NCBI GenBank assembly: GCA_946623205.1
Contig: CAMOQV010000001.1
Location: 1-42,316, forward strand
Source of the DNA: an uncultured Clostridia bacterium
GTDB taxonomy: Bacteria > Bacillota > Clostridia > Christensenellales > UBA3700
DNA length: 42,316 bases
Reading direction: 5' to 3'
Positions 651 to 19,813 of the stretch are shown piece after piece; the stretch's first letter is position 1, and the number at the start of each line of letters is the position of its first letter. A program made the position numbers and the translations under genes. The notes beneath the pieces were generated by a model. It did not search any database. It was not told the origin of the DNA and saw only the letters and a list, made by a program, of their open reading frames with translations.

Positions 651-3600
651 TTATATATCGTTAGGATCCAAGCTAAGTTTTATTTGCCCATATGTAACTT
701 TTATACTATAAGATCCAGTTACATCATTTCCGTTTTCATCATAGATATGTAACTCGCTAATCTTATTTTCTTGTACTCCAACGATTTGTTGTGGTGTTAC
801 AAAAGTGCACGCTATTCTATGTCCGCTAACCAATGTTCCTTGAGATAGGAATACTTCTTGATGTATGCTTCCGTTTGTTATTAATTGAGAAATAGAATTT
901 GTAGAGATTGCAATATATTTTGGTTTAACTACAACAGCATTTCCATTAACAACAATACGATAATTATTTGCAATGTTTGTTGTTCTAAATACATCTGAAC
1001 TGCTATAAACGCAAATCTCGTTTACATTCAAATCCGCAGCCTTAATTACGCCAGCATTAACAATTGGGCCCCTTATGCTTTGCATTGTCCATTCAATTAC
1101 AACATTTGAAGGTTGAGAAACTATTGTCCAAGCATTTGTCTTTGGACTTATTTCTTGTCCAGTGTATGTCTTAATGTAATTCTTTACATTAATTACAATA
1201 ATTTCCTTATCTGTCATTTCTACTTGGCCGTCAACCATATGGATGATAAATCTATTTGTAACATCATTTCCATAAGAGTCGAATAGCTTAAACTTCATAA
1301 TTTTACTTCTACTTATTCCAACGCCGACTTGACCGCCCAAAATCTCACATTCATATGTATATCCTTTGCTAATCAAGTTTTCAAACAAGCCTTTGTTTAC
1401 ATAAACTCCACTCTCGTTTGTAAATTCATATGATTCAACTTGTTGCTTTGGAGCAAGCTCAGCATCTGGATTCAATGGATCAAATGAACCTAATGTAAAT
1501 ACTGGATGTATATACATTTCTTTATCATAGAAATAATCTTCAACGTTAACAGTACTTGAAATATCTGAATCTTGTGAATTCTCGTTGTTGCTACCGCTTC
1601 CGCTAGCACCACCACTACTATTTGAATCGCTTCCAGTAACTTCTACAGCAATCCATCCCAATCCATATACATATACTTCAACCCAAGCATGTGCTTGTTT
1701 TTTAGTAATTGAAGTCTTTGTGTTAGGTTCTGTAACTTCGCCCTTTAATCCAACAACAAGTCTCGCTGGAATGCCTAATGTTCTATATAACAATGTTGCA
1801 GCACTTGCATAATGTCTACATACACCTTCTTTGTACTTAGTTAAGAATGCATATACAAAATCTGATTCTTCATCTAACGCTGGATCATATGCTAAGTTAT
1901 ATTTAGCAGACTTTTGAATATATTGAGCAACCTTTTGAATAACTGCAGAATCGCTAATTGTAAAGCCTTGACTGTTTATAATACTGATTAAATATTGTTT
2001 CAATTCGCCATCTGGAACAGTTAAATAATTAGATCTAAATAAATTGCTCATTCTATAATCTTGCTCAATTATTCTTAAATCTTGAGTTGTTTGAGATAGT
2101 TGAGTTAATATACCAACTGTTGAATCTCTATATTCTATTTCATACCCAAAGCCATCATGTTCTAATGTATGCAACTCTTGTGGATCCATATATTCCATTG
2201 CTGTATAGTATGGAACTAAAGCACCGTCAATAAATGATTTGATTGTTACATTATTTTTGCTTACTCCTAAATCACCTAGAGCAAGGCCTGTTAGAGCGTT
2301 ATATGAATATGTCTTTTCGTTATATGTAAATGTTCTATTTGCAATAGAACTATCCTCTGCATTCCATGTTGATCCTGTATAGTTTGCATAAGCTTCAGTC
2401 TTTAGATAAATCGATCCTGCGACATCTGATGTAACCATACATAATACTGATTCTTTATCTGCACCATTGTTATCTTGGTAATCAAAATTTTCATCCCAAT
2501 CTTGAATATTATCTTCTTCTGGATCTTCTGGCATATCTTTTTCGTCTGCAACGATTGTTAATGTACCGAAAATAATATTTACTGGCTCATAGAATTCTTC
2601 GTGTTCCCCATATACTTTAGCTGATGCCTTATTTGGAACAGAACCAATATCTACAATTCTTCCGTAGATTTCAACCGCAAGTTGATCGCCTTCTAAAACA
2701 GAGCCTGTCTCGATAATATAATGGTCATACATTAATGGAGTGCCACTATATACTGCATATTTACTACCTGTCTTTATGGTAATTTTTCTCTTAATGATTT
2801 CTATGTTACCTTTTGTGTCAATATTATATTCATAGTTTTCGCTAACATCTACATCATTTGTTTCATCTTCATCGCCATCACTGCCATCGAAAACAGAGAT
2901 ATCATAATCTATAATGTATGTTTCGTTTTCAGATAATCCTAATTCTAATCTTCCGCCGCCAAATGTAACGCTATTTACGACCATATAATGGCCATCAACG
3001 AATCTGCTTACTTTTTGCAACTTTCCATCTACAATACCATCTACAAGAATCTCTTCAATATCTTTTGCTGTTTGCATTTCGCCTGTGTATTCTAATGAAG
3101 CATTAGATGGTCTAATATAAATTAGTTTCTTATGAATAATTAAATTAATACTGCTAAATTCAACTATTGTTCCAGCTAAATCGACAAACGAAATTGCATA
3201 ATAGTTAGCTTCTTTATACTCATCTAAATCTGCATCATAAGTTAAAACTTTAATATCGCTTGTGTTTATTACGTATTCACCTGCATTGGTTTTAGCGAAT
3301 TCAGCTACATTAATAATATCGTCGCCTAATAGTTTTGTGTTATCTATAATATATTCGCTAATGTTAGGTGTATGCTCTTTAGCATCATATTCATATTCAA
3401 TATTGCTAATTTGGATATATATTTGTCTTGCTACGATATTTAAAGTTTGCGTTCTTAATTCAACATCATAACAATCAGCGTTGTCTAGAATATATTCACC
3501 AATCTCAACTGTATATTCGCCAATCTCTGTGCCTTCGCCTATAAATTCGAGAACACGTAATTCGTCGCCGCCAACCAAGCTTCCTTCTATAAATTCATAT

Positions 3601-6600
3601 TCATCTATAGTATGAACTTCTCCATCGTATTCAACCTCAATATGTTTTGGAGCAACAACTAATTTACGAGGAACGACTTGCACATATGATTCATCATTTG
3701 TGTACGTAATAATAAAGTTACTTGTAACTGTGTATCTCATCGTGCCATCGCTGTATGTTATTACAGGATTACTCATCGAAGCATAGCCATCTCCTGGAGT
3801 CTTTACGCTTAAGCTATATGTTGGGCTAAATGTGAATATTATTTGCTCTAGAGCATCATCTATTATGAATGCATTTGCTGCTTCACCTGCTGCTATATGA
3901 TCACCACCAAACACAATTGCTGGAGTATGAGCTTTACCATCATATTCAAATACCGAATGTTCCGCTTCTTCATCCCAAGCCACATTTAAAACTCTCGGAT
4001 TAATTGTTAATGTAACAACTGGAACATCCGATTCAATTATTGTTCCTTGTGCGTTTCTATAATTAACCTCTATTCCATCTTTCACGAAATGGACATTATA
4101 ATATCCTTTCATAAATAGATCAAAATCTATCATAGAGTAGCTATATACATAATCTGCATTTTGTACATCTTTTACGTTTGCAGTTGTATATGGGGCTAGA
4201 TTTAATTTATCGCCAAATACTAAATTAGTCTCATCTTGTAGCGGATCTCTATATGAAACGTTGTTATATTCGTCTTCTTCTTTAATAACTTCATGTATAT
4301 CTGGACTATGCTTTAATCCATCATATGTATATTCTGCGTTTGCTATAGAAATATAAATATGTATTGGGTTGATTGTCAATGTAACTGGGTTTGGTCCCAC
4401 TGGAAGAACCTGATAATAGTCAGCAGGGATCCTCTCGCCATAGTTATTATATGAAACTATTGGATAATACTCTTCAACAGTTTCTATTCCGTTAATTGTC
4501 TTTGTAATAGTATTGTTTTGAACATCGTAAACATACGTGCCAACACCAATAAAGCCTTTGTTTATAACTTCATCTCCTGGCAACAATTCATATCCATCTA
4601 CTGGATAGAATAAAATTTCCGCAAATTTCTCGTTGCCATCATATGTTACAGTGTTATCCTCTGTATGTAGATATACTGGTACAGGATTAATAGTTAGATT
4701 AACCATAGGGTTTGAGCCATCTTTTAATGCATTATCCCCATCTACAAATCCTAAAATTGTATAATTGCTTGTTACTTCTTCATTGTTAGCATTTAATATC
4801 TTTAATTCGCTTAATTCGAATTCGTAAACATAATCCCCATCTGCGATTGATTTAATCGTTGTTCTTGTAAAGTAGTCTACATTGAAATGGTCTCCATCCA
4901 TCAAGCCAACATCGCTACCAACTATTGGTTCATAGCTATCATTGACCTTCTTTACTACGCTAAAGGTTGGAGAGTGTGGTTGTCTATTATATATATAAAC
5001 TCCATTTACGGCCTTAACATAGATCTCTCTATTTACGATAAATAGAGTTACACCTTCTATGCCCTCATCAAACAATACGCCATCACTATCTACATAGTGA
5101 ATGTTATAATATGTAGCATACTCTAACGAAGCTGCCATCTTAATTTGAGCATTTAGTGGAGCGAAATGATATGTTCCAATTTCTTTGCCTTTATATGGTT
5201 CTTTATCTAATGTATCGCCAGATAGTAGATTTGTATTATTGAATGAAACTACATAAGAAACAACGCTATCAACAGTTTGCTTCATCACTTCTTGGATGCT
5301 TGGATAATGGTCTTTTCCGTCATAGATAATAGTCGTATCAGTCAATTGATAATATATATCTATCTTCTTAATAATTAACTCAACATAAGCCATACCTTGA
5401 GCAAATTCATTATCGTTTGAATCAATGTAATGAATTTCATAGTATGTTGGATCTTCGGCAGCCATTCTCTTTATTTGCATTTCAAATGGATTAAATGTAT
5501 ATTCGCCAACTTCTATTCTTTCAAATGGAGATAAATACAAATAATCATTTGTTAACAACATCGACTCTTCTGCATCGACATATTGAACTAAATCTGCATC
5601 CCAAACAACTTCTTTAATTGTTGGAGTATGCTTATTTCTATCGTAAGATACTTGAGTATCTATTAACTTGATATAAATATCTCTCTTTTCAATTTCAAAA
5701 GCTGATTGAGTATTATCATCTTTAAATGATATTTGATAATAATCAACAACTTGCTTATTAGCATCTACAATTGTAATACCTGCAATATCTATTGCATATT
5801 CCCCTATATCTGTTCTTTCATAAGGCGTAATATCAATTGAATCTCCATCAAGTAGGTTACTTTCAAAGCTATACTCTTTAATATTTGGATTTTGTTTTGC
5901 TCTATTATATGGAGTTGTATATATAGCATCTATGCTAATTACGATATCAATCTTTGTAATTTCTAATGTTACTTGAGCGTTTTCAACATTAATTGTGTTG
6001 TTCAATTTGTCTACATAACTAATGTTGTAATACGTACATGCAGTATATACATTGTTTTTATATTTAGCGATTGGATAATAATCCTCTATAGTTTCCTCGC
6101 CATTTACATTCATCGTAATCTTATTTGTATATAAATCATATGCATATGTGCCAATTGCGCTAAATACTGGAACGTATGCTATATCTCCTGTCAATATCTT
6201 TGTAGTTTCTTCTGTTGCATCAACATATGTACCTGATACGTCATCGTAATATACTTCTTTTATTATTGGACTATGAAGCTCTCTATCAAATGATGTTGAG
6301 TAATTATCTAACATCAAAGTAATTTCTATTGGAACAATTGTAATTGTTACAAATATATTACCTTGCGTTACTGGTACTGCGTCAACAGGCATACCATTTC
6401 CATCTAGTGTTATTGCATAATATTTAATTTCATAATAATCAACAACTTCTTGCGCACTATTTAAAACCTTTTTATCGTTTAGATCAAACGTATCTGTACC
6501 CACATCAGTTCTCTTATAATCTGAAGTTGAATATGAATCCCCAGATAATAAGGCAGCATAATCTGGGATAACCCCGGCATCGTGTGCATGGCCGTCGTAT

Positions 6601-9600
6601 GTGAATGTATATTCTATTAACCCAATTTTGAATTCTATTTTACTAATTATTATTTGAGCTGAAGATATATCATCTTTAAATGTTATGTTATAGCAATATG
6701 TCTCTATATCACCATTTGCGTCCTTAATGTTAATATCAGATATATCAACATCATATGATCCAATATCTGTTTGTCCATATGGTGTTAAATCTAGATAATC
6801 GCCAGAAATCAAATTGCCTTCATATGACACTTTTGGATATTGCACTTCTCTTGTATAAGAAGAATCTAAATCTTCTATCGTAACTAATACGTCTATCTTT
6901 TCAATTGTTAATGTAGATAGGATATTATCAAACGAAATATCGTAATACGAAACAGCACCATCTGATTCATTAACGACTTCTATATCGCTAATATCGATAT
7001 TATATACACCTGGGTTAATCTTTGCATATGGTGCAAGATTCAAGCTATCACCATTTAAGCAACTTCCTGATGTAATGCTAATTTCCGGACGTTGATAATC
7101 TCTTGTATATGTAGTAGTTTTTGATGGTTCAATAGTAACCATTAAAGCTCTCTTTGTAATATTGAATGTTATAATTGCATCATCTAAATCTATAGAATTG
7201 CCATCCAAATCTACAAAATAGATTTCATAATAACTAGCATCAGAATCCACATTATCTTCATTATGAAGAATTGGATAATAATGTTCCTCTAAAACTGCTT
7301 CGCCTATTGTTGCAGTAAGTGTTTGCGTTTTAAAGTTGAAAACATAGCTTCCTATTTCAATAAAGCTTCTAATTGTCAAATAATCGTCAGGTAACAATAC
7401 TGAAGAATTTGTTTCTGCAGATACATATTGAGCGCCATCCCATAGGACTTCTTTAATATGTGGTGCATGAGATGTCTTTGTATATTCATAAGACTCATCT
7501 TGTATTATTTGTAAATATAAATCGATTTTCTTAATAGTTAATGTAACGCTATCTTTATTATCCTTATAAATTACATTGTAGCAATCTGTAACATCTTCTT
7601 GCGTTTCGCTATTTAGAATCTTTAAATCATAATTTGTAAAACCATAAATTCCAACTTCTGATCTTAAATAACTATCTTTATCTATATAATCATTTTCTAG
7701 TAACTTCGATTCCCCGCTTATTACTTCTTCTATTTCTGGTCGAACATATCCTCTATCGTATTTATAAATTTTATCTGTTAACGCAATAGTAATAACTCTT
7801 GGGACAATTGTTAATGTAACTGATGTCTTATCCTCATAGCAGTGTATTTGATAATGATGAGTTACGTCTTCTCCTGTCTCTAGATTATGGAATTTAATTT
7901 CATCTGCATAATGAGTATATGTGCCAATTTCGCTATGCCACCAACCAACATCGCTATATGCATCTCCTGTCAATAAATAGCCTTCCAAAAACTGATTGCC
8001 TTCCAAATCTACTGATTTCATAGTTGGCATATAATTAGCTCTTGAATACTCTACTTCTCTATCCTCTAAGCGCAAATATACATCTATTTTTCTAATTGTT
8101 AGATTTGCTATAACATCTTCACTATCTAAATAAGGTGTATCTAATTCATCAACATAAGATATCTTATAATAATCAACATTAATTAATTCTTCATCAACTC
8201 GTCTTTGAATTATATTAAAATCTTCCTCTTCATCATCTGGCATTAGAATCTTATTTTGTGTTAGGTTATAGTTATATTCACCAACTTCGATAAACTCTCT
8301 TGTAATGAAGACATCCCCATCTAATAAGCTTCCACTCAATAATTCAAATGTTGGATGATGTGCTTGTCTATCAAAAGCAACATTAACATCTGTTATCCTT
8401 ATTGTTAATTCAATAGGATTAATTGTTAATGTTACAATTTCTTCAGTATTTATAGTGTTATCTTCATTGATAAAACCTAAAATTTCGTAATACGTCTTGA
8501 TATTTTCTTCATTTTGATCGTATATCTTTAGATTGTTTAAATCAAAGGTATATGTATAATCATCTTTGTTTAATCTCTCATCTAATGGCTTTACGTGCTC
8601 TCTTGTAAAGAAGCCAAGATTGAATCTATCTTCACCAAGAAGACCAATATCGCCATTTTCAATTTGCACATACGAAATGTCATTAGTTAATTCATCTACA
8701 ACTTTCTTAACTATAATAATCTCTGGACGATATTGTTTTACACCTTCAAATGTAAATGTCTTATTTATAGTCTTTATATAGAATGCTCTCTTTATAATAT
8801 TCAATGTAGCTACATCTTTGCCTTCAACAAATCTTACATCGTAATAGCTAACTTCATCACCATTTGAATTTCTAATCTTTACGTTTTTAATGTCATATTC
8901 ATAACTACCAACTATGCTGTTTCCAAATTCAGATACATCAATATAATCACCCGCAAGCAACTTGCTCTCGCCATCTATATATTCAAATGCATTGATAGCA
9001 TAGTAGTTATCATCAAATATAACTGTTTTTTCTTCATTTGTTAGAGTAACAATTCTCTTTAAAATCTTTAAGCTTCCGAAATCTTCATCTACAATTGTGA
9101 AATATTTTTCTGAGTTATAATCTAAAACGGCTCTAACAACAACCTCAGATTCTGCCAATACCGGGTTGTAATCTATCATCTTTGCAAGAACTGGATAGAT
9201 AGTACCTGTTCTATTATTTTCCGTATCATATATGCCAGGCAAATCTAACTCTTCTGGCACATATGGTTCATATTCTCCCGTTAGTGCATTTAATCTTAAT
9301 AGATAATATGTTGGTTCATCCTCGCTATATAAAGCAGTGCCGTCATATTCTTTTTCTTTGCTTTGAGTTGTTACCTTTAATTTAACTTTTTCTACAACTA
9401 AATCGCCTAATACCAACTTTAATTTATAGTTAGTACTCTCTATGCCATTTTCATAATCATCTTCGCTTTCATATATCTTAATATCCAAATCGTTTGTTAG
9501 TGTCCCTGGATATGTAAGTGTAGGAATCGAAGATCCTTTACTAACTCGAATTAGCGCATCTTTATATAACGTTCCTTCTACGTGTTCAAATCCAGCCGTT

Positions 9601-10772
9601 AAAGGTAGCCCATCGAACGTTTTTTTGTTTGCTAATGTATTAACTGTAATTTCTGCCTTTTCAACCTTTAGTGTGCCAAATCTTGGTACTATTTCATAGT
9701 TTGCCAAGTTTGTATTATCATTTGGATACCATTGCACAGAGTTTTGAATAGTTGAAGCGTTTGTAATCTCTTTAAAATCGCCAAACGAGAATCCTTCGCC
9801 TTGTGGTAATAAAGTAGAATCGTAAATTACTGTTTTGTCGCTAAGAGGCGTACCATCATATGTTTTTGTTTTATCGTTAGTCTTTATCTCTAGTCTTATC
9901 TTAGCTACATTTACTCTTCCATAGTTATAATGCACATCATAATATTTGTTTGTAACGTCTTTGCCATCTTTGTTCAATATTTTCATTGGCATATTGTTTG
10001 TGTATATGCCAGCATTATAACCAAATGTCTTTGGCGTAATATCTATAGAATCTGAATAACAAAGATTACCTGAAGATATATCATATTGAGATAATTCAAA
10101 TGTTTGGCCATTATATGTAGTATTTATACTTTCAGTATCGATTGTAATTCTCTTTTTCGTGAAATCAACTGCTTTTGTTTCTAATATAATGTTATAAGCA
10201 TCAGTTACATCTAAGCCTTCTTTGTTTATAATCTTCAACTTGTCTATATCTGGAGTAACATTAAATGTGTTTTCGTCTACATCATCAAATATAAATGAAT
10301 CACACTCTATCTTATCTGCATAAGCTAAATCGCTCGTTAATCTTAATATAGTGCCATATTCTATTTCATTATTTACAATGCAAATTGTAATGTCTTTCTT
10401 TTTGATGACAACACTAACTGCCTTTCCGTGTTGCGTCGCACCAAAAGATCTTTCAGAAACGGTTCTTATTTCATATTCACCTGGAGTTTCTGGCAATCCA
10501 GCAGTCCATTGTGTATCATTCTTCTCTTTATATTCTGTTGTAGATTTACTAAAGATACTATTTGATTCATAATAAACTCTCTCACCATAAGTTAAATCTG
10601 TTTCCCCAACGACAGGATCAAGAATCATACCATTAATACCAACTAATGTTGAAACGACAATAAAGACAGCAATCAAGCAAGCTATAATTAAAATCTTATG
10701 CTTAATTATTGAATCTCTAATTGATGCTAACGTCTCTAAACGTTTTTTGTAGATATCGTACGTTACTTTCAT
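651..10772 (-). CDS. giant (3,373 aa) type-II membrane-anchored surface protein: MBG-like repeat array plus transglutaminase-like cysteine-protease core
   Basis: Uninterrupted ORF whose ATG overlaps the upstream stop (TGATG). N-terminal K/R-rich segment followed by a hydrophobic helix, ILIIACLIAVFIVVSTLVGING. About 26 tandem repeats of roughly 85-110 aa (pattern K-x-I-x-I, Y-D/N/T-G/R-x-x-H-x-P, LL-x-GD, G-x-Y, YY-x-I, TLTI). Acidic linker ADEKDMPEDPEED. TgpA-like module with GVCRHYASAA (Cys codon 1818-1820) and HAWVEVYVYGLGWIAVEVTG (His codon 1689-1691). Ser/Gly/Asn linker, then about 3 more repeats. Confidence 0.9.
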   Translation of the reverse strand: MKVTYDIYKKRLETLASIRDSIIKHKILIIACLIAVFIVVSTLVGINGMILDPVVGETDLTYGERVYYESNSIFSKSTTEYKEKNDTQWTAGLPETPGEYEIRTVSERSFGATQHGKAVSVVIKKKDITICIVNNEIEYGTILRLTSDLAYADKIECDSFIFDDVDENTFNVTPDIDKLKIINKEGLDVTDAYNIILETKAVDFTKKRITIDTESINTTYNGQTFELSQYDISSGNLCYSDSIDITPKTFGYNAGIYTNNMPMKILNKDGKDVTNKYYDVHYNYGRVNVAKIRLEIKTNDKTKTYDGTPLSDKTVIYDSTLLPQGEGFSFGDFKEITNASTIQNSVQWYPNDNTNLANYEIVPRFGTLKVEKAEITVNTLANKKTFDGLPLTAGFEHVEGTLYKDALIRVSKGSSIPTLTYPGTLTNDLDIKIYESEDDYENGIESTNYKLKLVLGDLVVEKVKLKVTTQSKEKEYDGTALYSEDEPTYYLLRLNALTGEYEPYVPEELDLPGIYDTENNRTGTIYPVLAKMIDYNPVLAESEVVVRAVLDYNSEKYFTIVDEDFGSLKILKRIVTLTNEEKTVIFDDNYYAINAFEYIDGESKLLAGDYIDVSEFGNSIVGSYEYDIKNVKIRNSNGDEVSYYDVRFVEGKDVATLNIIKRAFYIKTINKTFTFEGVKQYRPEIIIVKKVVDELTNDISYVQIENGDIGLLGEDRFNLGFFTREHVKPLDERLNKDDYTYTFDLNNLKIYDQNEENIKTYYEILGFINEDNTINTEEIVTLTINPIELTIRITDVNVAFDRQAHHPTFELLSGSLLDGDVFITREFIEVGEYNYNLTQNKILMPDDEEEDFNIIQRRVDEELINVDYYKISYVDELDTPYLDSEDVIANLTIRKIDVYLRLEDREVEYSRANYMPTMKSVDLEGNQFLEGYLLTGDAYSDVGWWHSEIGTYTHYADEIKFHNLETGEDVTHHYQIHCYEDKTSVTLTIVPRVITIALTDKIYKYDRGYVRPEIEEVISGESKLLENDYIDKDSYLRSEVGIYGFTNYDLKILNSETQEDVTDCYNVIYKDNKDSVTLTIKKIDLYLQIIQDESYEYTKTSHAPHIKEVLWDGAQYVSAETNSSVLLPDDYLTIRSFIEIGSYVFNFKTQTLTATIGEAVLEEHYYPILHNEDNVDSDASYYEIYFVDLDGNSIDLDDAIITFNITKRALMVTIEPSKTTTYTRDYQRPEISITSGSCLNGDSLNLAPYAKINPGVYNIDISDIEVVNESDGAVSYYDISFDNILSTLTIEKIDVLVTIEDLDSSYTREVQYPKVSYEGNLISGDYLDLTPYGQTDIGSYDVDISDINIKDANGDIETYCYNITFKDDISSAQIIISKIEFKIGLIEYTFTYDGHAHDAGVIPDYAALLSGDSYSTSDYKRTDVGTDTFDLNDKKVLNSAQEVVDYYEIKYYAITLDGNGMPVDAVPVTQGNIFVTITIVPIEITLMLDNYSTSFDRELHSPIIKEVYYDDVSGTYVDATEETTKILTGDIAYVPVFSAIGTYAYDLYTNKITMNVNGEETIEDYYPIAKYKNNVYTACTYYNISYVDKLNNTINVENAQVTLEITKIDIVISIDAIYTTPYNRAKQNPNIKEYSFESNLLDGDSIDITPYERTDIGEYAIDIAGITIVDANKQVVDYYQISFKDDNTQSAFEIEKRDIYIKLIDTQVSYDRNKHTPTIKEVVWDADLVQYVDAEESMLLTNDYLYLSPFERIEVGEYTFNPFEMQIKRMAAEDPTYYEIHYIDSNDNEFAQGMAYVELIIKKIDIYYQLTDTTIIYDGKDHYPSIQEVMKQTVDSVVSYVVSFNNTNLLSGDTLDKEPYKGKEIGTYHFAPLNAQIKMAASLEYATYYNIHYVDSDGVLFDEGIEGVTLFIVNREIYVKAVNGVYIYNRQPHSPTFSVVKKVNDSYEPIVGSDVGLMDGDHFNVDYFTRTTIKSIADGDYVYEFELSELKILNANNEEVTSNYTILGFVDGDNALKDGSNPMVNLTINPVPVYLHTEDNTVTYDGNEKFAEILFYPVDGYELLPGDEVINKGFIGVGTYVYDVQNNTITKTINGIETVEEYYPIVSYNNYGERIPADYYQVLPVGPNPVTLTINPIHIYISIANAEYTYDGLKHSPDIHEVIKEEDEYNNVSYRDPLQDETNLVFGDKLNLAPYTTANVKDVQNADYVYSYSMIDFDLFMKGYYNVHFVKDGIEVNYRNAQGTIIESDVPVVTLTINPRVLNVAWDEEAEHSVFEYDGKAHTPAIVFGGDHIAAGEAANAFIIDDALEQIIFTFSPTYSLSVKTPGDGYASMSNPVITYSDGTMRYTVTSNFIITYTNDESYVQVVPRKLVVAPKHIEVEYDGEVHTIDEYEFIEGSLVGGDELRVLEFIGEGTEIGEYTVEIGEYILDNADCYDVELRTQTLNIVARQIYIQISNIEYEYDAKEHTPNISEYIIDNTKLLGDDIINVAEFAKTNAGEYVINTSDIKVLTYDADLDEYKEANYYAISFVDLAGTIVEFSSINLIIHKKLIYIRPSNASLEYTGEMQTAKDIEEILVDGIVDGKLQKVSRFVDGHYMVVNSVTFGGGRLELGLSENETYIIDYDISVFDGSDGDEDETNDVDVSENYEYNIDTKGNIEIIKRKITIKTGSKYAVYSGTPLMYDHYIIETGSVLEGDQLAVEIYGRIVDIGSVPNKASAKVYGEHEEFYEPVNIIFGTLTIVADEKDMPEDPEEDNIQDWDENFDYQDNNGADKESVLCMVTSDVAGSIYLKTEAYANYTGSTWNAEDSSIANRTFTYNEKTYSYNALTGLALGDLGVSKNNVTIKSFIDGALVPYYTAMEYMDPQELHTLEHDGFGYEIEYRDSTVGILTQLSQTTQDLRIIEQDYRMSNLFRSNYLTVPDGELKQYLISIINSQGFTISDSAVIQKVAQYIQKSAKYNLAYDPALDEESDFVYAFLTKYKEGVCRHYASAATLLYRTLGIPARLVVGLKGEVTEPNTKTSITKKQAHAWVEVYVYGLGWIAVEVTGSDSNSSGGASGSGSNNENSQDSDISSTVNVEDYFYDKEMYIHPVFTLGSFDPLNPDAELAPKQQVESYEFTNESGVYVNKGLFENLISKGYTYECEILGGQVGVGISRSKIMKFKLFDSYGNDVTNRFIIHMVDGQVEMTDKEIIVINVKNYIKTYTGQEISPKTNAWTIVSQPSNVVIEWTMQSIRGPIVNAGVIKAADLNVNEICVYSSSDVFRTTNIANNYRIVVNGNAVVVKPKYIAISTNSISQLITNGSIHQEVFLSQGTLVSGHRIACTFVTPQQIVGVQENKISELHIYDENGNDVTGSYSIKVTYGQIKLSLDPNDI
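2558..10400 (-). repeat. protein-level tandem array of about 26 diverged MBG-like (YDG ... NY/YY ... TLTI) Ig-like repeats inside the giant CDS
   Basis: Repeat boundaries were read from the translation (recurring TLTI/LTIN-P/K-x-I-x-I junctions). The copies are diverged at the protein level, and I saw no long identical DNA stretches. Confidence 0.7.
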
Positions 10773-12991
10773 CAGTACAATTCAAGCTCCCCTGATATTG
10801 TGGTTATTATGAAGTTCTTTGTTATATCTACTAATACAGTATTATCATTTTGATCTTTCTTACTATAGTAAATCTTTACTTCTTCTATATCGTTATCTGC
10901 TATGCCTTGCTCCGTTAGGATTGTTGGCATAGTTACTTTAACTACTAAATCTTCAATATATCCTTGATATTCATATGTGAAATCATCTTCATCACATTGC
11001 AATCTTGCACCTGGTGTATATGCAGCTCTTTCGCTTCCTGCAGTTACTGTAATTAAGACAGGAGTGATCTTTACTTCGCCAGGAATTGCTTCTATTTCAT
11101 AATCATCCGTAGCATCGACACCACCTCTTAAAATCTCAACTTTGAATGGATTTTCATACACACCTATATCTCTAAATGTGTTTTGGAACGTTAATCTCAA
11201 TTCGTCTGTTTCTGCTAAATGTCCTGCTTCAATAGAATATGCTTCAACTGTTCTATCTGTATTGTTATATGTAAAGTTTGCGTTCTTGCCTCTGATTCTC
11301 AAAAGATATTTATAAACATGCAAGGTGCCTGCACGTGTATAATCATAGCCATATTCATCACTTACATCTTCACCGTTTTCATCTACAATTACTGGCTCAA
11401 CATAGTTTGGCGTTTTACCAACTTCTGTCCTTGAAGATATGAAGTTATATGACACGATTGTGTGATTTGGTTCCAAATTGCCTGTATAGTAAACTTCTGT
11501 GCCGGCGCCTGTTAATGGTTGACCATTATATTCTCTTGAAACATCTTCAGTTGTTAAATATAAAATTGTTCTAACTTGCACAAATAATCCTTGCTCATAA
11601 GAAAAATCAAAATCATTTGTTACTTCATCGCCATCCGCGTTATAGATATGGAATTCTTCTATATTTGTTAAACCAGCATTACCAAGTTTTGTAAATCCTG
11701 ATGGATATTCAAAATCTATAATGCTACCACTCTTATCTGCATTTCCATAAAAACCAGCTGTATAATAGAACCCATCATATTTTTTTATTAAATCTATTAA
11801 ATCGCCTTCTAAGAAGTCGCCTTCTTTACGTGAATCATGTATAACCCCATCTTCGTCTGCGCCTAATGGATAATACCTACCATCAACGCCATCTTGAGGA
11901 ACTTGGCTTATCTTTGGTTTAATAACAGATTGATTATCCTCGTTTGAAACAGTTCTTCCTGTTGGATCTGTTGGAACCCAACCAACACCATCTACATATA
12001 TCTCTACCCACGCGTGCGCGTCTCTATTAGTTACTTCAACTTCTTCATCTTTTATAGCCTTTACGCTAAAGCCATCTACTCTTCTTGCTGGAATGCCTGC
12101 AGATCTATACATTAATACTGCGGCGCTCGCAAAGTGTTGGCAGATACCTTTTTTGTATTTAGACATAAAAGCAACTACGACATCGCTTTCGTTGTTCATA
12201 GCTCTATCGAATTCCAAATCATAAGATGCAGCATTTGAAACATAATTTGAAATGTTAGAATAAATATTCTTTGTATCTTTTGACCAGCCTTTATCTCTCA
12301 ATATATCTAAAAAATATTGTTTTGTTGTTTGAGGAACTGCTGTGTAATGTTCATATACGAAAGTTCTATATGCTAATTCTTCTTGCGAATATTGTGTTCT
12401 TGGCGATGATTTAACCATAGATGACAATGTATCTGCATTATATTTATTAGCGCCAAAATAAATTGCTGTATATGGGCTACTTACATCACCGCTATTTTCT
12501 ATATCACTTGTTTGAAGTTTAACACTGCTTCCCATTGGAGATGTGTAATATGGGAGTACATAGTTGTTGTAATTAGGATCAATCTTCATGCTATATATCA
12601 ATGCACCTTGCTCATCACAATATAACGCAGTTAAATAATCACATGAGATTGAATTATTTATTAATTCTTGGTATTCAACCGGATTTTGCCATGCATTATT
12701 TTCCATATCTCCATATGCAAAGGCTTTTAATAATACTGTTCCATTTGAATTTGCTGTAACTCTATAACAAACTCTTGTTTCACTATCCGAATCTGTTCCC
12801 AAATCCGAAGAGAATTGTCCATTTCTATTTAAAGCGTTAGCTAAAGCCTCAGAAAGGCCTGTCTTCATAACGCCATCTTCAAAGTTTACGAAAAAGCGCA
12901 CAACAAACAAAAGCAAAGCTGCAATAGTAAATATTGCTAACATGCCTACAAGATTCAATCCATGATTACTTTGCTTCTTCTCTTGTGCCAT
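10772..12991 (-). CDS. membrane-anchored transglutaminase-like protein (739 aa) with C-terminal MBG-like repeats; short paralogue of the giant protein
   Basis: N-terminal TM LVGMLAIFTIAALLLFVV. Canonical Transglut_core triad context: KKGICQHFASAA (Cys 12140-12142) and DAHAWVEIYVDGVGWVPTDPTG (His 12014-12016, DPT Asp). The pre-core region aligns with the giant protein (VLPYYTSP vs LVPYYTAM; AFAYGDMENNAW vs EAYANYTGSTW). The C-terminus has 3-4 YNG/YxI-type repeats. Confidence 0.88.
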   Translation of the reverse strand: MAQEKKQSNHGLNLVGMLAIFTIAALLLFVVRFFVNFEDGVMKTGLSEALANALNRNGQFSSDLGTDSDSETRVCYRVTANSNGTVLLKAFAYGDMENNAWQNPVEYQELINNSISCDYLTALYCDEQGALIYSMKIDPNYNNYVLPYYTSPMGSSVKLQTSDIENSGDVSSPYTAIYFGANKYNADTLSSMVKSSPRTQYSQEELAYRTFVYEHYTAVPQTTKQYFLDILRDKGWSKDTKNIYSNISNYVSNAASYDLEFDRAMNNESDVVVAFMSKYKKGICQHFASAAVLMYRSAGIPARRVDGFSVKAIKDEEVEVTNRDAHAWVEIYVDGVGWVPTDPTGRTVSNEDNQSVIKPKISQVPQDGVDGRYYPLGADEDGVIHDSRKEGDFLEGDLIDLIKKYDGFYYTAGFYGNADKSGSIIDFEYPSGFTKLGNAGLTNIEEFHIYNADGDEVTNDFDFSYEQGLFVQVRTILYLTTEDVSREYNGQPLTGAGTEVYYTGNLEPNHTIVSYNFISSRTEVGKTPNYVEPVIVDENGEDVSDEYGYDYTRAGTLHVYKYLLRIRGKNANFTYNNTDRTVEAYSIEAGHLAETDELRLTFQNTFRDIGVYENPFKVEILRGGVDATDDYEIEAIPGEVKITPVLITVTAGSERAAYTPGARLQCDEDDFTYEYQGYIEDLVVKVTMPTILTEQGIADNDIEEVKIYYSKKDQNDNTVLVDITKNFIITTISGELELY

Positions 12992-12992
12992 C

Positions 12993-14438
12993 CTAAATGT
13001 TATTTACAATGTTATGAATGTATTGTTTACATCTTGGCATTGCTTCCTCTCCAAATAGTTCATTTAGCTTGTCTACTAACCCATCTGCTCCATTTTTAAC
13101 GTAGATTGGGTTCTTCATCTCAAGCTTTCTCAATATCTTCTTAGATAAGATATCGTCTAACGCATCAAGTTCTTCTCCGCCACATCCAATGTAAATCGGT
13201 ACATACTTATTTATTTGCATCATAATTCTGTTACCAAATGTTACTTGGAAATGCTTCGTTAAGTAATTGTCTAATTCCTTTAACTTCTCTTTGTTTCTCT
13301 CTGTTAATGCATTCTCTTGTTGTGCATTTAATATCAATCGATCAAAATCTTTTGCACTTAAATGTAGATTAGAACTATTTCTTCCTCTAAATGGTTCACA
13401 CTTGTTATCCAAGTTTAGAATCATAGCTCTATCGTATACCTTATCTGAAATAGCAAATGTACTATCATCATTGTTTGCTGTTCCAATAAACCACATGTTT
13501 GTTGGTAATTGTATTTGTCCATCTTTCAAACTTGCTGGGTCTGTTGCCCACTTGTCTGAAACTACTTCCATATATCTTTCATCTGCTCTTGGTAATTCCA
13601 ATAAAGATAAGAATTCTGCAAAGTAATACTCAACTCTCGCAATATTCATTTCATCTAGCACTGTTATATAGATGTCTTCTGAATAATTCGCTTCATACAT
13701 CTTCTTTAATAGAGCTGTTTCATTAAAGTGCTTTGTGAATTCATTGTAATATCCAATAAGGTCTGTTCTTTCCTTCCACATAGGTTGAATTGGAATAACT
13801 GTTGATGGATTCTCTACAAATCTACCAAATGCATATGCAAGTGATGTCTTACCTGTACCAGACATACCTTGCAATATTAAGATGTGAGATACTCCAAGTC
13901 CAGCTATGAATGACCTAATATCTTCTGCTCTGTAATATAACCCTAATTCATTTGCTGAATAGTTTCTAAAATCATCACAGAACATCTCTAATGTAATATT
14001 GTTGATGTAATCATCCTTTGAATATGTCTCTCTCTTCTTATCTATTTGCTTCAATATGCTGAATCTAGATATGTTCTTGTTGTTCTTATCACTAGCTTTG
14101 CTTGAGCCTATACTTCCTGTTCCTTCAACTAATAATTCGTTTGGCAACGATAGTTGATATGAACCATGATGTCTTTGATATCTATACAAGGCTCTTGCAT
14201 TTTCTCTAATTCTTTTGAAGATAACGATAACAGTCACTAAAAGTACAATTGGAGTACCAATTAAAAGAGCGATTAAATATACGAAATCTATTACGTTTTG
14301 TTCTTCAATATATTTTTTGAACTCTTCAATATTAGCAACTATTACCAATTCCAAGATGAAAGCAACAATCACAACGATTATTGCGGCTACAATCATAACA
14401 TTAGTTAGAGTTATTTTCTTATTGTTTGAACTTTTCAT
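12993..14438 (-). CDS. membrane-anchored McrB-type AAA+ NTPase (481 aa, two N-terminal TM helices)
   Basis: Walker A GMSGTGKTS (13842-13868). Walker B plus following helix VLDEMNIARVEYYFAEFLSLLE (compare McrB IIDEINRANLSKVFGE..LLE). LPTNMWFIGTANNDDST (compare McrB NVYIIGLMNTADRS). Two hydrophobic helices lie at the N-terminus, followed by a basic stretch, KRIRENARALYRYQRHH. Confidence 0.8.
   Translation of the reverse strand: MKSSNNKKITLTNVMIVAAIIVVIVAFILELVIVANIEEFKKYIEEQNVIDFVYLIALLIGTPIVLLVTVIVIFKRIRENARALYRYQRHHGSYQLSLPNELLVEGTGSIGSSKASDKNNKNISRFSILKQIDKKRETYSKDDYINNITLEMFCDDFRNYSANELGLYYRAEDIRSFIAGLGVSHILILQGMSGTGKTSLAYAFGRFVENPSTVIPIQPMWKERTDLIGYYNEFTKHFNETALLKKMYEANYSEDIYITVLDEMNIARVEYYFAEFLSLLELPRADERYMEVVSDKWATDPASLKDGQIQLPTNMWFIGTANNDDSTFAISDKVYDRAMILNLDNKCEPFRGRNSSNLHLSAKDFDRLILNAQQENALTERNKEKLKELDNYLTKHFQVTFGNRIMMQINKYVPIYIGCGGEELDALDDILSKKILRKLEMKNPIYVKNGADGLVDKLNELFGEEAMPRCKQYIHNIVNNI
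12994..14110. repeat. direct repeat copy A (1,117 bp), apparently 100% identical to 15982-17098
   Basis: Base-by-base reading agrees. The encoded C-terminal ~370 aa are identical, as are the antisense shadow ORFs (13267-13626 = 16255-16614; 13499-13726 = 16487-16714). The offset is a constant 2,988 bp. Confidence 0.9.
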
Positions 14439-15981
14439 CTTCTACCTTCTTAAACAATATTTCTCTTTGTAGTCTCTTCTTGGTCTTCTTCCATGCCATT
14501 TTGTAATACTCGCCGATTACTTTGTATTCCTTTTCGATTAATTTAAACTTGTCCTCATCTGTATAGTCTTGATAATCTACTTCCAATCCAAGTTGATTTC
14601 TAAATGCATTATTTTGTGTAATTGCACTATCAAATTTCTCTCTTTGAAGCTCCATTGAATGTTGCATGTTTGCTAATTCTTTTTCAAGATTACCTTTTGC
14701 TTGAATTAAATTGCTTCTTTCGTTGTTCACTTGGCCTAGTTCTTGTTCAAAAACCGCTTGTCTTTGAGCTATTTTGTTTTCATAAGCTATTGCCATGCTT
14801 GCTTTTTCTTCTTGCAAGTTCGCAATATCGCCCTTTAGTGCTTTAATTGTTCCTTTTTGTTTTTCAATAACGCTATTTGCACTTTGAAGTTCTAGTAATT
14901 GAGATTCTAGATATTGGATTCTTTCATTTTGTATTAAAATGTATTCATCTATTTCCTTTCCGCTAAGCTTTTGCTTGCCTCTTAATTCTTGAATTCTCTC
15001 TTTAACTTCTTCAATTCTTTCAGCTTCTTCGATCTTCAATTGTTTTTCCATTTCTTCTTGAAGAGATTCGCCAAGTTCCATACTATGCATTTGCATTAAG
15101 AACAATAGCAACAAAACTGTGTTATTGAAATCGTCTTCAGCTTCTCTATCTAATTGTTTTTCAACAGCTTCTCTTGTAATAGAATATCCTGGTGCTGAAT
15201 ATGTAGATATATATTCATATAAGGCAAGAGCATATTTGAAGTTTGTTTCCATTTTTAAAACGTTAGTTTTTGTAATAGGTGGCTTAATCATTGGCACCTT
15301 GCTTACTTCTACCATAAGCGGAGTAGATAGCAATTTCAAAATAGCGTTTAAAACGTCTTCAATTCTTTGTACAACTTTAGCGTTAGCACTATCTTTAGAC
15401 AATGACATATTCTCATCTTCAATATTGATTGAATATGTAATATTTCTTTGTTTTGTTTTATATTTAGAGCCAATCTCTAAAACTGTGTAATATTTTCCTG
15501 AATATTCTGTAATCTTGTTATATCTTTCAGTTGTGAAGTCTCTTAAATAAGTTAATAGCAAATACAAGAATCTATTCTCATAAACAGCATAATCACTTAG
15601 CTTTTCTACGGTGTAAATCTTTTCTGGTCTTACTTCATCTGTTTCTTCGTCAATCTCTTTAATTAAAGATGCGTGCTTTGCAAGATGGCTAATAGATTCT
15701 TTTGATACACTCTTTGTCTTTTCAATTAAAACAACTTCTCCGTTTGTTCTAATGAATTGTCTTTCTTGCGAAATTGCCTTTTCTATATACTTTAGATTGT
15801 TTTCAATTTCGCTTATCCAATCTTCTGTTACTTCACACTTAATTCTTTCTATTGAAAGCTTAGATATCTTACTTGAACCAAGCGAGTTGATTTGACGTAA
15901 AAAGTTTTGGATACCCTTATCCTTTAGCGCAAACTTTTTATATTCAACAAACGCTCTATAGTAATAATCTATCGTTCTCAT
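14419..15981 (-). CDS. McrC-position partner protein: DUF2357-like N-terminal region plus long coiled coil, no nuclease domain (520 aa)
   Basis: Sandwiched between the two McrB-like genes and translationally coupled to both (TAATG at 15981; 20-nt overlap at 14419-14438). The YAVYENRFLYLLLTYL motif (about 15568-15582) resembles the ENRF(V/L)K motif of DUF2357/McrC-like proteins. Residues ~300-470 are heptad-rich and E/K/Q/L-rich (EEMEKQLKIEEAERIEEVKERIQELRGKQ...). No PD-(D/E)xK signature is visible. Confidence 0.6.
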   Translation of the reverse strand: MRTIDYYYRAFVEYKKFALKDKGIQNFLRQINSLGSSKISKLSIERIKCEVTEDWISEIENNLKYIEKAISQERQFIRTNGEVVLIEKTKSVSKESISHLAKHASLIKEIDEETDEVRPEKIYTVEKLSDYAVYENRFLYLLLTYLRDFTTERYNKITEYSGKYYTVLEIGSKYKTKQRNITYSINIEDENMSLSKDSANAKVVQRIEDVLNAILKLLSTPLMVEVSKVPMIKPPITKTNVLKMETNFKYALALYEYISTYSAPGYSITREAVEKQLDREAEDDFNNTVLLLLFLMQMHSMELGESLQEEMEKQLKIEEAERIEEVKERIQELRGKQKLSGKEIDEYILIQNERIQYLESQLLELQSANSVIEKQKGTIKALKGDIANLQEEKASMAIAYENKIAQRQAVFEQELGQVNNERSNLIQAKGNLEKELANMQHSMELQREKFDSAITQNNAFRNQLGLEVDYQDYTDEDKFKLIEKEYKVIGEYYKMAWKKTKKRLQREILFKKVEDEKFKQ

Positions 15982-17318
15982 TAAATGTTATTTACAATGT
16001 TATGAATGTATTGTTTACATCTTGGCATTGCTTCCTCTCCAAATAGTTCATTTAGCTTGTCTACTAACCCATCTGCTCCATTTTTAACGTAGATTGGGTT
16101 CTTCATCTCAAGCTTTCTCAATATCTTCTTAGATAAGATATCGTCTAACGCATCAAGTTCTTCTCCGCCACATCCAATGTAAATCGGTACATACTTATTT
16201 ATTTGCATCATAATTCTGTTACCAAATGTTACTTGGAAATGCTTCGTTAAGTAATTGTCTAATTCCTTTAACTTCTCTTTGTTTCTCTCTGTTAATGCAT
16301 TCTCTTGTTGTGCATTTAATATCAATCGATCAAAATCTTTTGCACTTAAATGTAGATTAGAACTATTTCTTCCTCTAAATGGTTCACACTTGTTATCCAA
16401 GTTTAGAATCATAGCTCTATCGTATACCTTATCTGAAATAGCAAATGTACTATCATCATTGTTTGCTGTTCCAATAAACCACATGTTTGTTGGTAATTGT
16501 ATTTGTCCATCTTTCAAACTTGCTGGGTCTGTTGCCCACTTGTCTGAAACTACTTCCATATATCTTTCATCTGCTCTTGGTAATTCCAATAAAGATAAGA
16601 ATTCTGCAAAGTAATACTCAACTCTCGCAATATTCATTTCATCTAGCACTGTTATATAGATGTCTTCTGAATAATTCGCTTCATACATCTTCTTTAATAG
16701 AGCTGTTTCATTAAAGTGCTTTGTGAATTCATTGTAATATCCAATAAGGTCTGTTCTTTCCTTCCACATAGGTTGAATTGGAATAACTGTTGATGGATTC
16801 TCTACAAATCTACCAAATGCATATGCAAGTGATGTCTTACCTGTACCAGACATACCTTGCAATATTAAGATGTGAGATACTCCAAGTCCAGCTATGAATG
16901 ACCTAATATCTTCTGCTCTGTAATATAACCCTAATTCATTTGCTGAATAGTTTCTAAAATCATCACAGAACATCTCTAATGTAATATTGTTGATGTAATC
17001 ATCCTTTGAATATGTCTCTCTCTTCTTATCTATTTGCTTCAATATGCTGAATCTAGATATGTTCTTGTTGTTCTTATCACTAGCTTTGCTTGAGCCTACA
17101 TTGCCAACGCCCTTAACCTTAATAGCCTTGTCTGGCAATTGAAGTTCAACTGTTTGTGTTGTTTCTCTAAAATCTTTTGCTTGCTTTGCTTGGATGATAA
17201 GCAAAATAACCATTATCGCAATGAAAGACACAATCAACGTAGAATAAATAATAATCGCATACGTTGATGTGAAAATATCTATGATTTCACTGGACAATAA
17301 AAATAACGTATTAAGCAT
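15981..17318 (-). CDS. membrane-anchored McrB-type AAA+ NTPase (445 aa, N-terminal TM anchor)
   Basis: Same AAA+ module as 12993-14438 (Walker A 16830-16856, Walker B DE 16638-16643), with a different N-terminus: IIIYSTLIVSFIAIMVILLIIQAKQAK. GGAGGA sits 6 nt upstream of the ATG. Confidence 0.8.
   Translation of the reverse strand: MLNTLFLLSSEIIDIFTSTYAIIIYSTLIVSFIAIMVILLIIQAKQAKDFRETTQTVELQLPDKAIKVKGVGNVGSSKASDKNNKNISRFSILKQIDKKRETYSKDDYINNITLEMFCDDFRNYSANELGLYYRAEDIRSFIAGLGVSHILILQGMSGTGKTSLAYAFGRFVENPSTVIPIQPMWKERTDLIGYYNEFTKHFNETALLKKMYEANYSEDIYITVLDEMNIARVEYYFAEFLSLLELPRADERYMEVVSDKWATDPASLKDGQIQLPTNMWFIGTANNDDSTFAISDKVYDRAMILNLDNKCEPFRGRNSSNLHLSAKDFDRLILNAQQENALTERNKEKLKELDNYLTKHFQVTFGNRIMMQINKYVPIYIGCGGEELDALDDILSKKILRKLEMKNPIYVKNGADGLVDKLNELFGEEAMPRCKQYIHNIVNNI
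15982..17098. repeat. direct repeat copy B (1,117 bp), apparently 100% identical to 12994-14110
   Basis: See copy A. Identity stops abruptly at 17098/17099 (copy A 14110/14111) and at the stop codons (TAA here, TAG in copy A). Confidence 0.9.
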
Positions 17319-18796: not shown

Positions 18797-19813
18797 CTAC
18801 ACCAAATCTGAATATGGAATCACTTGACCTTCATAGTAGAAAGTAATTTGATCTACATTTTCAAATGCTCCACTTTCGATTTTTGGTTTTGATTTATACA
18901 ATCTAACTGTACGTACTTGGTAACATCCAGAGAACGCGCTGGATTTAACTGTTTCGGCACCATACAATTGGACTGTTTTTAAACCTTGACAGAAGCTAAC
19001 TGTATTTGCATTTATTGTCTTTGTTTCTAATATTGCCTCAACTAGCGAGCTACATGAAACAATGGCACTGCTGTTAATCTTCTTTGCCTCAATATCTACG
19101 GTATATAAAGATGGGCAAGAAACGATTGCTCCAGCTTCAACTTCATCAAGATGATATACACTAATACTCTTAACATTTGATTGGTTAAAAGCTCCCTTTT
19201 TAATTCCACTCAAATTAAATGTTCTATCTTGCGTAAACGCAATAGACGTCGTGTCTGGATTTACTTTTTGTATGTAAATCTTTCCAACGCTTTCTTCTAC
19301 TAACGTAACTCCTGGATACAAATCATTTGTACCTACGTTGTTACCAAGCCAAATTTGCATTTGTTGATACATTGGAAGATACATTGCAATAAATACTCCT
19401 GTAAGTAAAACCAAAAATGCTGTCAATGTTGCACTAAATGCTGTGAATTTTTTGGTTGCATCGGCAACTTTTGCTCTTGTCTTCTTTACTGGAGCTGCTT
19501 GTTTAATTTCTATAATTTCGATTGCTTCACAATTTGGACGCAATGGCATTTGCTTTGCCTTACCAAAATATTCGCCTGGCTTTGCGTATTGTTTTGTGAA
19601 TAATATATTATCTGTTTCTAGGACTTTACCTTTTGCGTCAACTTGATTGATTTTGCAAGTAATATCTTTAATTAACTCTCTTGAATTGTTCTTAAATTCA
19701 ATAATTGCGTATCTTTGTTTTTCTTCGATAAAGATGACATATCTTGTTGCGATAAGACTACTCTTTAGTTTGCTACTTAGGGTGACTGCTTTATAAATAA
19801 CTTTAGTTGCCAT
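18797..19813 (-). CDS. single-pass membrane protein with extracellular BspA-type leucine-rich repeats (LRR_5-like)
   Basis: Central TM FTAFSATLTAFLVLLTGVFIAMYL. The C-terminal ~150 aa show units of ~20-23 aa with (A/S)(F/I)x(S/G)Cxx(L/V) (GAFNQSNVKSI, AIVSCPSLYTV, AIVSCSSLVEA, VSFCQGLKTV, SAFSGCYQVRTV, GAFENVDQI). GGGGGT RBS. Confidence 0.65.
   Translation of the reverse strand: MATKVIYKAVTLSSKLKSSLIATRYVIFIEEKQRYAIIEFKNNSRELIKDITCKINQVDAKGKVLETDNILFTKQYAKPGEYFGKAKQMPLRPNCEAIEIIEIKQAAPVKKTRAKVADATKKFTAFSATLTAFLVLLTGVFIAMYLPMYQQMQIWLGNNVGTNDLYPGVTLVEESVGKIYIQKVNPDTTSIAFTQDRTFNLSGIKKGAFNQSNVKSISVYHLDEVEAGAIVSCPSLYTVDIEAKKINSSAIVSCSSLVEAILETKTINANTVSFCQGLKTVQLYGAETVKSSAFSGCYQVRTVRLYKSKPKIESGAFENVDQITFYYEGQVIPYSDLV

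Follow-up and report, generated by a model that had tools for sequence, protein, structure and literature searches.

A TgpA-type transglutaminase module near the end of a long repeat stalk: a predicted giant surface protein of an uncultured Clostridia bacterium

TgpA of Pseudomonas aeruginosa is a compact protein of 688 amino acids (aa) with six transmembrane helices that hold its enzyme domain at the membrane; the periplasmic domain has transglutaminase (TGase) activity in vitro (PMC3507681). Two papers that introduced or applied the Pfam families MBG, MBG_2 and YDG class them among the stalk domains of fibrillar adhesins and periscope proteins (PMC9210967, PMC8201768). CoCoPALM is a clade of McrB proteins with a link to pilus assembly factors; Bell et al. 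2024 name it without describing it and do not mention transglutaminase (PMC11090510). Here we describe a locus that resembles each of these in part. It lies in the window, that is, the first 42 kb (42,316 nucleotides) of contig 1 (CAMOQV010000001.1) of a 1.3-Mb assembly from an uncultured Clostridia bacterium (148 contigs, 87% complete, ~32% G+C), and its largest gene encodes a protein of 3373 aa. We favour, with a probability of roughly 0.6, the reading of this protein as a type-II (N-in) membrane-anchored surface fibre in which a repeat stalk carries a TgpA-type thiol enzyme head.

Head, stalk and anchor

The gene, on the minus strand of the window, breaks down into the following parts.

651..10772, minus strand: whole gene; 3373 aa, 382 kDa, isoelectric point 4.4; stop-free open reading frame (ORF), intact in a second assembly
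10698..10772, minus strand: cytoplasmic tail, aa 1-25, MKVTYDIYKKRLETLASIRDSIIKH; an instance of M..Y[DE].Y..[KR]..., the motif conserved among long-class members of the family
10623..10697, minus strand: single transmembrane helix, ~aa 26-50, from hydropathy; in the same place in homologues
10440..10610, minus strand: membrane-proximal conserved half-unit, aa 55-111, related to the stalk units
9051..10439, minus strand: stalk units 1-5, aa 112-574; canonical YDG/MBG-like, e.g. KTYDGTPL
3153..9050, minus strand: stalk units 6-24, aa 575-2540; diverged subtype
2538..3152, minus strand: stalk units 25-26, aa 2541-2745; unit 26 of the canonical type
2448..2537, minus strand: acidic linker, aa 2746-2775; 13 D/E in 30 aa
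1617..2447, minus strand: TgpA-type module, aa 2776-3052, 277 residues; beta pre-core, helical region and Transglut_core
1818..1820, minus strand: Cys2985 (GVCRHYA), aligned with the catalytic Cys of TgpA and conserved in the family; catalysis predicted
1689..1691, minus strand: His3028 (AHAWVEV), aligned with the catalytic His of TgpA and conserved in the family; catalysis predicted
1641..1643, minus strand: Glu3044, aligned with the TgpA Asp, the usual triad position
1518..1616, minus strand: Ser/Gly/Asn-rich linker, aa 3053-3085; predicted disordered
654..1517, minus strand: three C-terminal units, aa 3086-3373; well-predicted beta units that form, with the TGase module, the conserved head cassette

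An earlier note, made from the letters of this DNA, had proposed much of this layout. Its topology (a short basic cytoplasmic N-terminus, one transmembrane helix and everything else outside) agrees with the hydropathy and with the K/R count of the tail. All of the modules that it placed after the stalk, namely the acidic linker, the TgpA-like pre-core with the Cys-His core, the Ser/Gly/Asn linker and three further repeats, are present in that order, and its estimate of about 26 stalk repeats plus three C-terminal ones is what the iterated profile gives once the weak units are added.

Transglut_core (PF01841) is the only family that the Pfam scan of the whole protein reports, at aa 2943-3044 (E 1.7e-20; 73.8 bits, cut-off 23); neither DUF3488 nor DUF4129 is among the Pfam matches. 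In sequence, the closest solved relative of the module is the periplasmic domain of TgpA (6g49, E 5.8e-10). The structural model of the head, with a mean predicted local distance difference test (pLDDT) score of 87.5, is matched by Foldseek to 6g4h and 6g49 with an E of 4e-10, a probability of 1.0 and template modelling (TM) scores of 0.56-0.57 (target-normalised) over ~300 columns, and this match spans both pre-core and core. Among 102 aligned heads, the His is invariant and the Cys and the Glu are each present in at least 90%; judging from this alignment, Cys-His-Glu is the norm of the family and not a sign of decay in this copy.

The body of the stalk, ~2,690 aa, consists of the half-unit and 26 full units. 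A profile search that started from a single unit and was iterated within the same protein recovered 20 units at E<1e-3, and a full-length profile built from the repeats of a relative and adapted to the 3373-aa protein recovered 26 at E<0.01, 24 of them before the TGase module and two after it. The addition of weak or undetected units at ~2264-2369, 2541-2665 and 3186-3278, with boundaries read by eye, brings the final count to 26 units ahead of the module (starts from 112 to 2666, 80-137 aa each) and three behind it. Units 1-5, unit 26 and the C-terminal units follow the canonical pattern K.YDGTPL ... NY.I ... G.L.V; the pattern of the diverged subtype is Y-D/N/T-R/G..H.P ... LL.GD ... G.Y ... 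YY.I ... TLTI. Between pairs of stalk units, the median identity is 34% and the highest 50% (local alignments of at least 40 columns), and no regular super-repeat was found in the stalk, strong unit pairs occurring at all offsets.

The repeats had been taken for MBG domains in the earlier note, and this label stands by way of the relatives, not by a direct match. Against the whole protein, the Pfam models MBG (PF17883), MBG_2 (PF18676) and YDG (PF18657) gave nothing at E<=0.1; the best values for single units (MBG, E 0.03-0.24; MBG_2, E 0.07) are at the level of noise, like those of unrelated families; and the NCBIfam scan returned no usable MBG, MBG_2 or YDG match for the protein. In the homologue P0005 (2286 aa, annotated as 'transglutaminase-like putative cysteine protease'), all three models pass, with 120.9 bits for YDG, 49.4 for MBG and 38.5 for MBG_2. 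A repeat hidden Markov model (HMM) built from this homologue alone matches the 3373-aa protein in register, and the reverse search works too. When 21 units (5-25) were compared by hhalign with 105 canonical units drawn from 69 related loci, the probability was 98.6% and the E 1.3e-15 over the full length of 89 columns; scanned singly, the 105 canonical units gave 22 YDG, 11 MBG_2 and 6 MBG matches at E<=0.01. Because the units of the relatives pass the models and homology to them is supported by hhalign and by the reciprocal HMMs, the repeats are, on sequence evidence, distant members of the YDG/MBG-type group, and YDG suits them at least as well as MBG. The stalk role proposed for them in the earlier note is consistent with the literature on these families (PMC9210967, PMC8201768). 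The AgI_II_C2 model (PF17998), which matched in relatives, was set aside as a domain assignment: only ~30-80 residues of its 148 positions are covered.

Unit 13 (aa 1291-1388), modelled with AlphaFold2 from a 136-row alignment of units from the window and the related loci, has a pLDDT of 94.5, eight strands and no long helix. A Foldseek search of this model against the PDB gave no match at E<=1e-3; the best matches, all weak, were the Lactobacillus reuteri adhesin repeat 4ng0 (E 0.012, TM-score 0.34) and a PKD domain (TM-score 0.45). The model thus suggests a small all-beta fold class, Ig-like at best. A two-domain model was abandoned in favour of the single unit: the MAFFT alignment of overlapping repeat pairs was staggered by identity and out of register.

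Hydropathy marks one hydrophobic segment only, at ~aa 20-52, and the tail ahead of the transmembrane helix contains 6 K/R against 3 D/E; outside the tail and the helix, the protein is acidic. The helix has the character of a signal anchor, with no obvious cleavage site. There is no C-terminal LPXTG-type anchor: the protein ends in ...KLSLDPNDI, with no C-terminal hydrophobic segment.

The conserved motif of the tail is an element that the earlier note did not contain. In the long class of the family, this stretch of 20-25 residues is conserved across genera, as in MLYDKYRKKI.K...(F/Y)R; the version encoded here is MKVTYDIYKKRLETLASIRDSIIKHK, and the fuller motif, M..Y[DE].Y..[KR][IM].K...[FYH][RK], is found in long TGase/fibre proteins (loci L005-L073). 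Short-class paralogues have only a minimal tail, MT(R/K)K. The same motif also starts 18 giants that showed neither of the TGase signature motifs. With the tail, the helix and the first half-unit as the query (aa 1-125), 674 cluster representatives were retrieved at E<=1e-3, and in nearly all of the listed matches this module sits at the extreme N-terminus. No signal motif of the KxYKxGKxW or YSIRK type was recovered in the NCBIfam scan (E<=0.1), which gave one weak unrelated match only; the motif is therefore of no known signal type. That a fibre lying otherwise outside the cell has a conserved peptide on the cytoplasmic side points to a partner in the cytoplasm or the membrane, to which the tail probably couples the fibre; the obvious candidate, by co-occurrence, is the McrB-like module encoded with it.

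The gene is free of stops and frameshifts in both assemblies in which we found it. An independent assembly encodes a protein of 3374 aa, 98% identical to the one described here, in the same operon on a 62.5-kb contig from ENA (L074). The two genes are collinear, with 97.6% nucleotide identity and one in-frame codon indel, and the ratio of nonsynonymous to synonymous substitution rates (dN/dS) between them is 0.13 overall, 0.06-0.17 in each of five segments and 0.11 in the TGase module; the long gene evolves under purifying selection. Direct DNA repeats within the gene reach at most 42 nt and 83% identity, so that repeat-driven mis-assembly is not a concern.

The family and its operon

The head cassette, that is, the TGase module with the ~290 residues that follow it, is present at no fewer than 494 places in species-representative genomes; the counts of loci given here rest on the best 69 of these. 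All 69 come from genomes labelled Clostridia, Eubacteriales or Firmicutes, most of them from gut or faeces; many are of the Christensenellales type (Borkfalkia, Scatosoma, Coproplasma, Christensenella). All are metagenome-assembled genomes (MAGs), apart from one cultured strain, Anaerocaecibacter muris CLA-AA-M11, whose locus (L039) contains an McrB-like gene and TGases of 1092 and 2186 aa. At least 27 giants of 2,000-5,463 aa follow the same overall plan, all with one or two TGase modules and about 22 with the start of basic tail plus transmembrane helix. Because the last TGase module lies 240-360 aa from the C-terminus in 103 cassettes, the module and the three units behind it form a fixed head. 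The earlier note had found the distal position of the enzyme unusual; the placement itself holds, but it is the fixed design of a large family and not an oddity of one gene. The relatives are already in databases as 'transglutaminase domain-containing protein', and we found no paper on the family. For the single gene, the result is mostly confirmatory. Two more Transglut_core genes are present elsewhere in the genome, at C34:2372-2713 and C20:253-597, in open frames of 1231 and 374 aa.

Stalk length differs between species and is the same within the one strain pair compared. Long-class proteins range between species from ~1,350 to 4,641 aa. The two proteins closest by the N-terminal module (57-59% identical there) are only 1,560 and 1,594 aa long, with 9-10 stalk units, and both align collinearly with aa 1 to ~700-1,006 and with ~2,399-2,543 to 3,366 of the 3373-aa protein; by this alignment, ~15-17 middle units of the diverged subtype are extra in the lineage of the latter. 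Because the units share at most 50% identity and the strain with the 98%-identical protein has just as many of them, the expansion is old and fixed and not a strain-level variation in length. This conforms to the earlier note, which had argued from divergence for an old expansion and against a variable-number tandem repeat, and it is in line with the limits on DNA repeats given above. The operon is patchy, being present in one of six same-genus, one of 18 same-family and one of 12 same-order genomes searched. In the same-genus copy, the long protein is ~1,606 aa and the TGase module only 43% identical, which, together with the patchiness, suggests an accessory or laterally moving locus.

The long gene is preceded by co-oriented neighbours.

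10772..12991, minus strand: short paralogue, 739 aa; anchored by a transmembrane segment; same TGase module, here with Asp as the third triad residue, followed by repeats; no long stalk
12993..17318, minus strand: McrB-like AAA_5 protein of 481 aa, DUF2357-like protein of 520 aa and second McrB-like AAA_5 protein of 445 aa

The start ATG of the long gene overlaps the TGA of the 739-aa gene by one base (TGATG), with GGGGAG ~15 nt 5' of the ATG. In the short paralogue, the TGase module and then the repeats come directly after the transmembrane anchor. The gene order recurs among the loci as McrB-like, McrC-like, McrB-like, short TGase (653-1,695 aa) and long TGase (up to 4,641 aa), the long gene usually being the last of the operon. 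An McrB-like gene is directly upstream of the first TGase gene in 30 of the 31 loci with enough upstream DNA, and 52 loci contain two adjacent TGase genes, the short and long pair. The McrB-like label is modest (AAA_5, E 2e-7, with E. coli McrB providing the only PDB matches, E ~1e-3), and the McrC-like label comes from a sub-threshold DUF2357 match (E 2e-4), this neighbour giving only noise against the PDB. A literature search combining McrB, transglutaminase and membrane yielded nothing relevant.

Several observations on the surroundings stand apart from the fibre. The two McrB-like genes share a stretch of 1,117 bp (12994-14110 and 15982-17098 in the window, 3675-4791 and 6663-7779 in L074), in which the cross-assembly matches are 99.8% identical compared to 98.3% for the surrounding operon, a pattern that fits ongoing gene conversion between the copies. 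Further upstream, the region of a 338-aa LRR_5 gene (18797-19813, minus strand) differs between the assemblies (L074 ~1100-1990): BLAST breaks there, with ~235 nt of the window and ~100 nt of L074 unaligned, and no gene is called in L074. At 27933-31610 on the minus strand is a 1225-aa MacB-like protein, an ABC ATPase domain fused to an FtsX-like permease end, with ~900 intervening residues that have no Pfam match at E<=1e-5. Genes in the remainder of the window serve the usual metabolism of an anaerobe, among them those for pyruvate formate-lyase, FeFe hydrogenase and malic enzyme, and the flanking ORFs scanned against Pfam matched no phage or transposon family.

Readings of the locus

Ig-like stalk domains contribute ~4 nm each, so that ~27 units correspond to ~100 nm. 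Under the favoured reading, the repeats would form an extended stalk of about this length that carries the head through and well past the cell wall. The thiol enzyme at the tip would then perform acyl transfer on an extracellular target, be it cross-linking, deamidation or isopeptide/peptide cleavage, and the short paralogue would carry out the same chemistry near the membrane. The reach would depend on the length of the stalk, which species would adjust by gaining or losing middle units, and the conserved tail would couple the fibre to a partner, with the McrB-like GTPase module as the candidate, acting in export, placement or control.

Several points weigh against this reading. The Pfam stalk models have no direct match to the 3373-aa protein, and the repeat unit lacks a close solved structure (best E 0.012, TM-scores 0.34-0.45). 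The rod shape is a prediction, and the 100-nm length derives from a general figure per domain. The third residue of the triad is Glu and not the canonical Asp, so that the chemistry may differ, and proteins of the transglutaminase fold include proteases, deamidases and inactive binders. The transmembrane segment may remain as an anchor or may be cleaved. The link between the tail and the McrB-like module is one of co-occurrence, and the McrB assignment is itself weak (AAA_5, E 2e-7; PDB McrB, E ~1e-3).

A bolder version, which we put forward only tentatively, gives the neighbours a definite role. The McrB/McrC-like GTPase module, membrane-tethered and nuclease-free, would recognise the tail and would export, position, tension or signal along the ~100-nm fibre, the giant protein then being the working end of an undescribed envelope machine of Gram-positive bacteria. 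The tail motif, M..Y[DE].Y..[KR]..., is common to giants with and without the TGase signature motifs. If true, a motor of the restriction type would have been put to new use in working surface fibres.

It is also possible, albeit doubtful, that the fibres assemble themselves: instead of acting on foreign targets, the TGase heads would covalently cross-link one fibre with another, with the short paralogue or with the wall, producing a pilus- or mesh-like surface structure organised by the membrane-bound McrB/McrC-like module. Transglutaminases are protein cross-linkers by definition (PMC3507681), two TGase-bearing proteins are encoded side by side by overlapping or adjacent genes, and the three repeats of the head could be substrates or docking sites; in addition, the related McrB clade CoCoPALM takes its name from a link to pilus assembly factors (PMC11090510). 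However, the Pfam scan revealed no signal-peptidase-family or sortase-like assembly factor among the ten upstream ORFs, each of the two proteins retains a transmembrane anchor of its own, and no cross-link motif was identified. The giants that share the tail and have neither TGase signature motif further imply that the fibre can exist headless.

That the transglutaminase fold at the tip only binds, without catalysis, and that the protein is simply a fibrillar adhesin of reversed polarity, seems distinctly unlikely. The layout of stalk plus tip is indeed that of fibrillar adhesins (PMC9210967), the Asp of the canonical triad is replaced, and the Cys is lost in the cassettes of some relatives (e.g. 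GMYRHYA in P0011). Nevertheless, Glu is the norm of the family and not the product of decay, and an inactive head is disfavoured because the triad is conserved across the 102 cassettes and the module has a dN/dS of 0.11.

Finally, the chance is negligible that mis-assembly joined several repeat-containing genes into this ORF or that it is a pseudogene in decay: assembly errors are common in long repeat genes and the genome is a fragmented MAG, but the independent assembly contains a collinear gene with a single codon indel and a dN/dS of 0.13, DNA repeats are at most 42 nt throughout, and dozens of relatives have the same architecture.

Given the purifying selection on the gene and its recurrence across hundreds of species-representative genomes, the long protein probably has an important role at the cell surface. 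Together with ~10 kb of co-oriented, tightly packed upstream genes, this 10-kb gene takes up ~1.5% of the 1.3-Mb assembly. Christensenellales-type gut Clostridia with small genomes are abundant and almost uncultured, and their contact with their surroundings is poorly understood. The family would provide a natural example of an enzyme shown on a length-tunable stalk and a Cys-His-Glu branch of the transglutaminase fold that is open to characterisation, and the tail motif offers a handle on the role of membrane-bound McrB-like GTPases outside DNA defence.

Comparison with TgpA, CoCoPALM and fibrillar adhesins

To TgpA (PA2873; 6G49, 6G4H), the likeness extends over the entire extracytoplasmic module, in sequence and in fold, and both proteins are membrane-anchored with the enzyme module outside the cytoplasm. 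The neighbour of TgpA is presumably MoxR, in which case both adjoin AAA+ genes of the AAA_5 kind. In contrast to TgpA, the 3373-aa protein has one transmembrane helix, a stalk of ~2,690 aa, three extra C-terminal units, and Glu in place of Asp.

The operon context of the locus is similar to that of CoCoPALM, with putative McrB-type AAA+ proteins that have membrane segments and a putative McrC-like partner, without a DNA-restriction context (PMC11090510). CoCoPALM is defined by FtsB-like fusions and by neighbours of the signal-peptidase family, neither of which turned up in the Pfam scan of the ten upstream ORFs in the window.

Fibrillar adhesins and periscope proteins with MBG, MBG_2 and YDG stalks (CdrA, SasG, Rib) likewise project a tip on tandem beta domains; the repeats are homologous and length varies through repeat number. 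The polarity is reversed, with an N-terminal transmembrane helix and a C-terminal tip here versus a C-terminal LPXTG and an N-terminal tip there, and the tip has the fold of an enzyme in place of a known adhesive domain. Unlike in periscope proteins, no two units exceed 50% identity, long DNA repeats are absent, and the two strains are one codon apart, length differing between species only. The protein is thus a fibrillar-adhesin design with reversed polarity and an enzyme at the tip or, equally, a TgpA put on a stalk.

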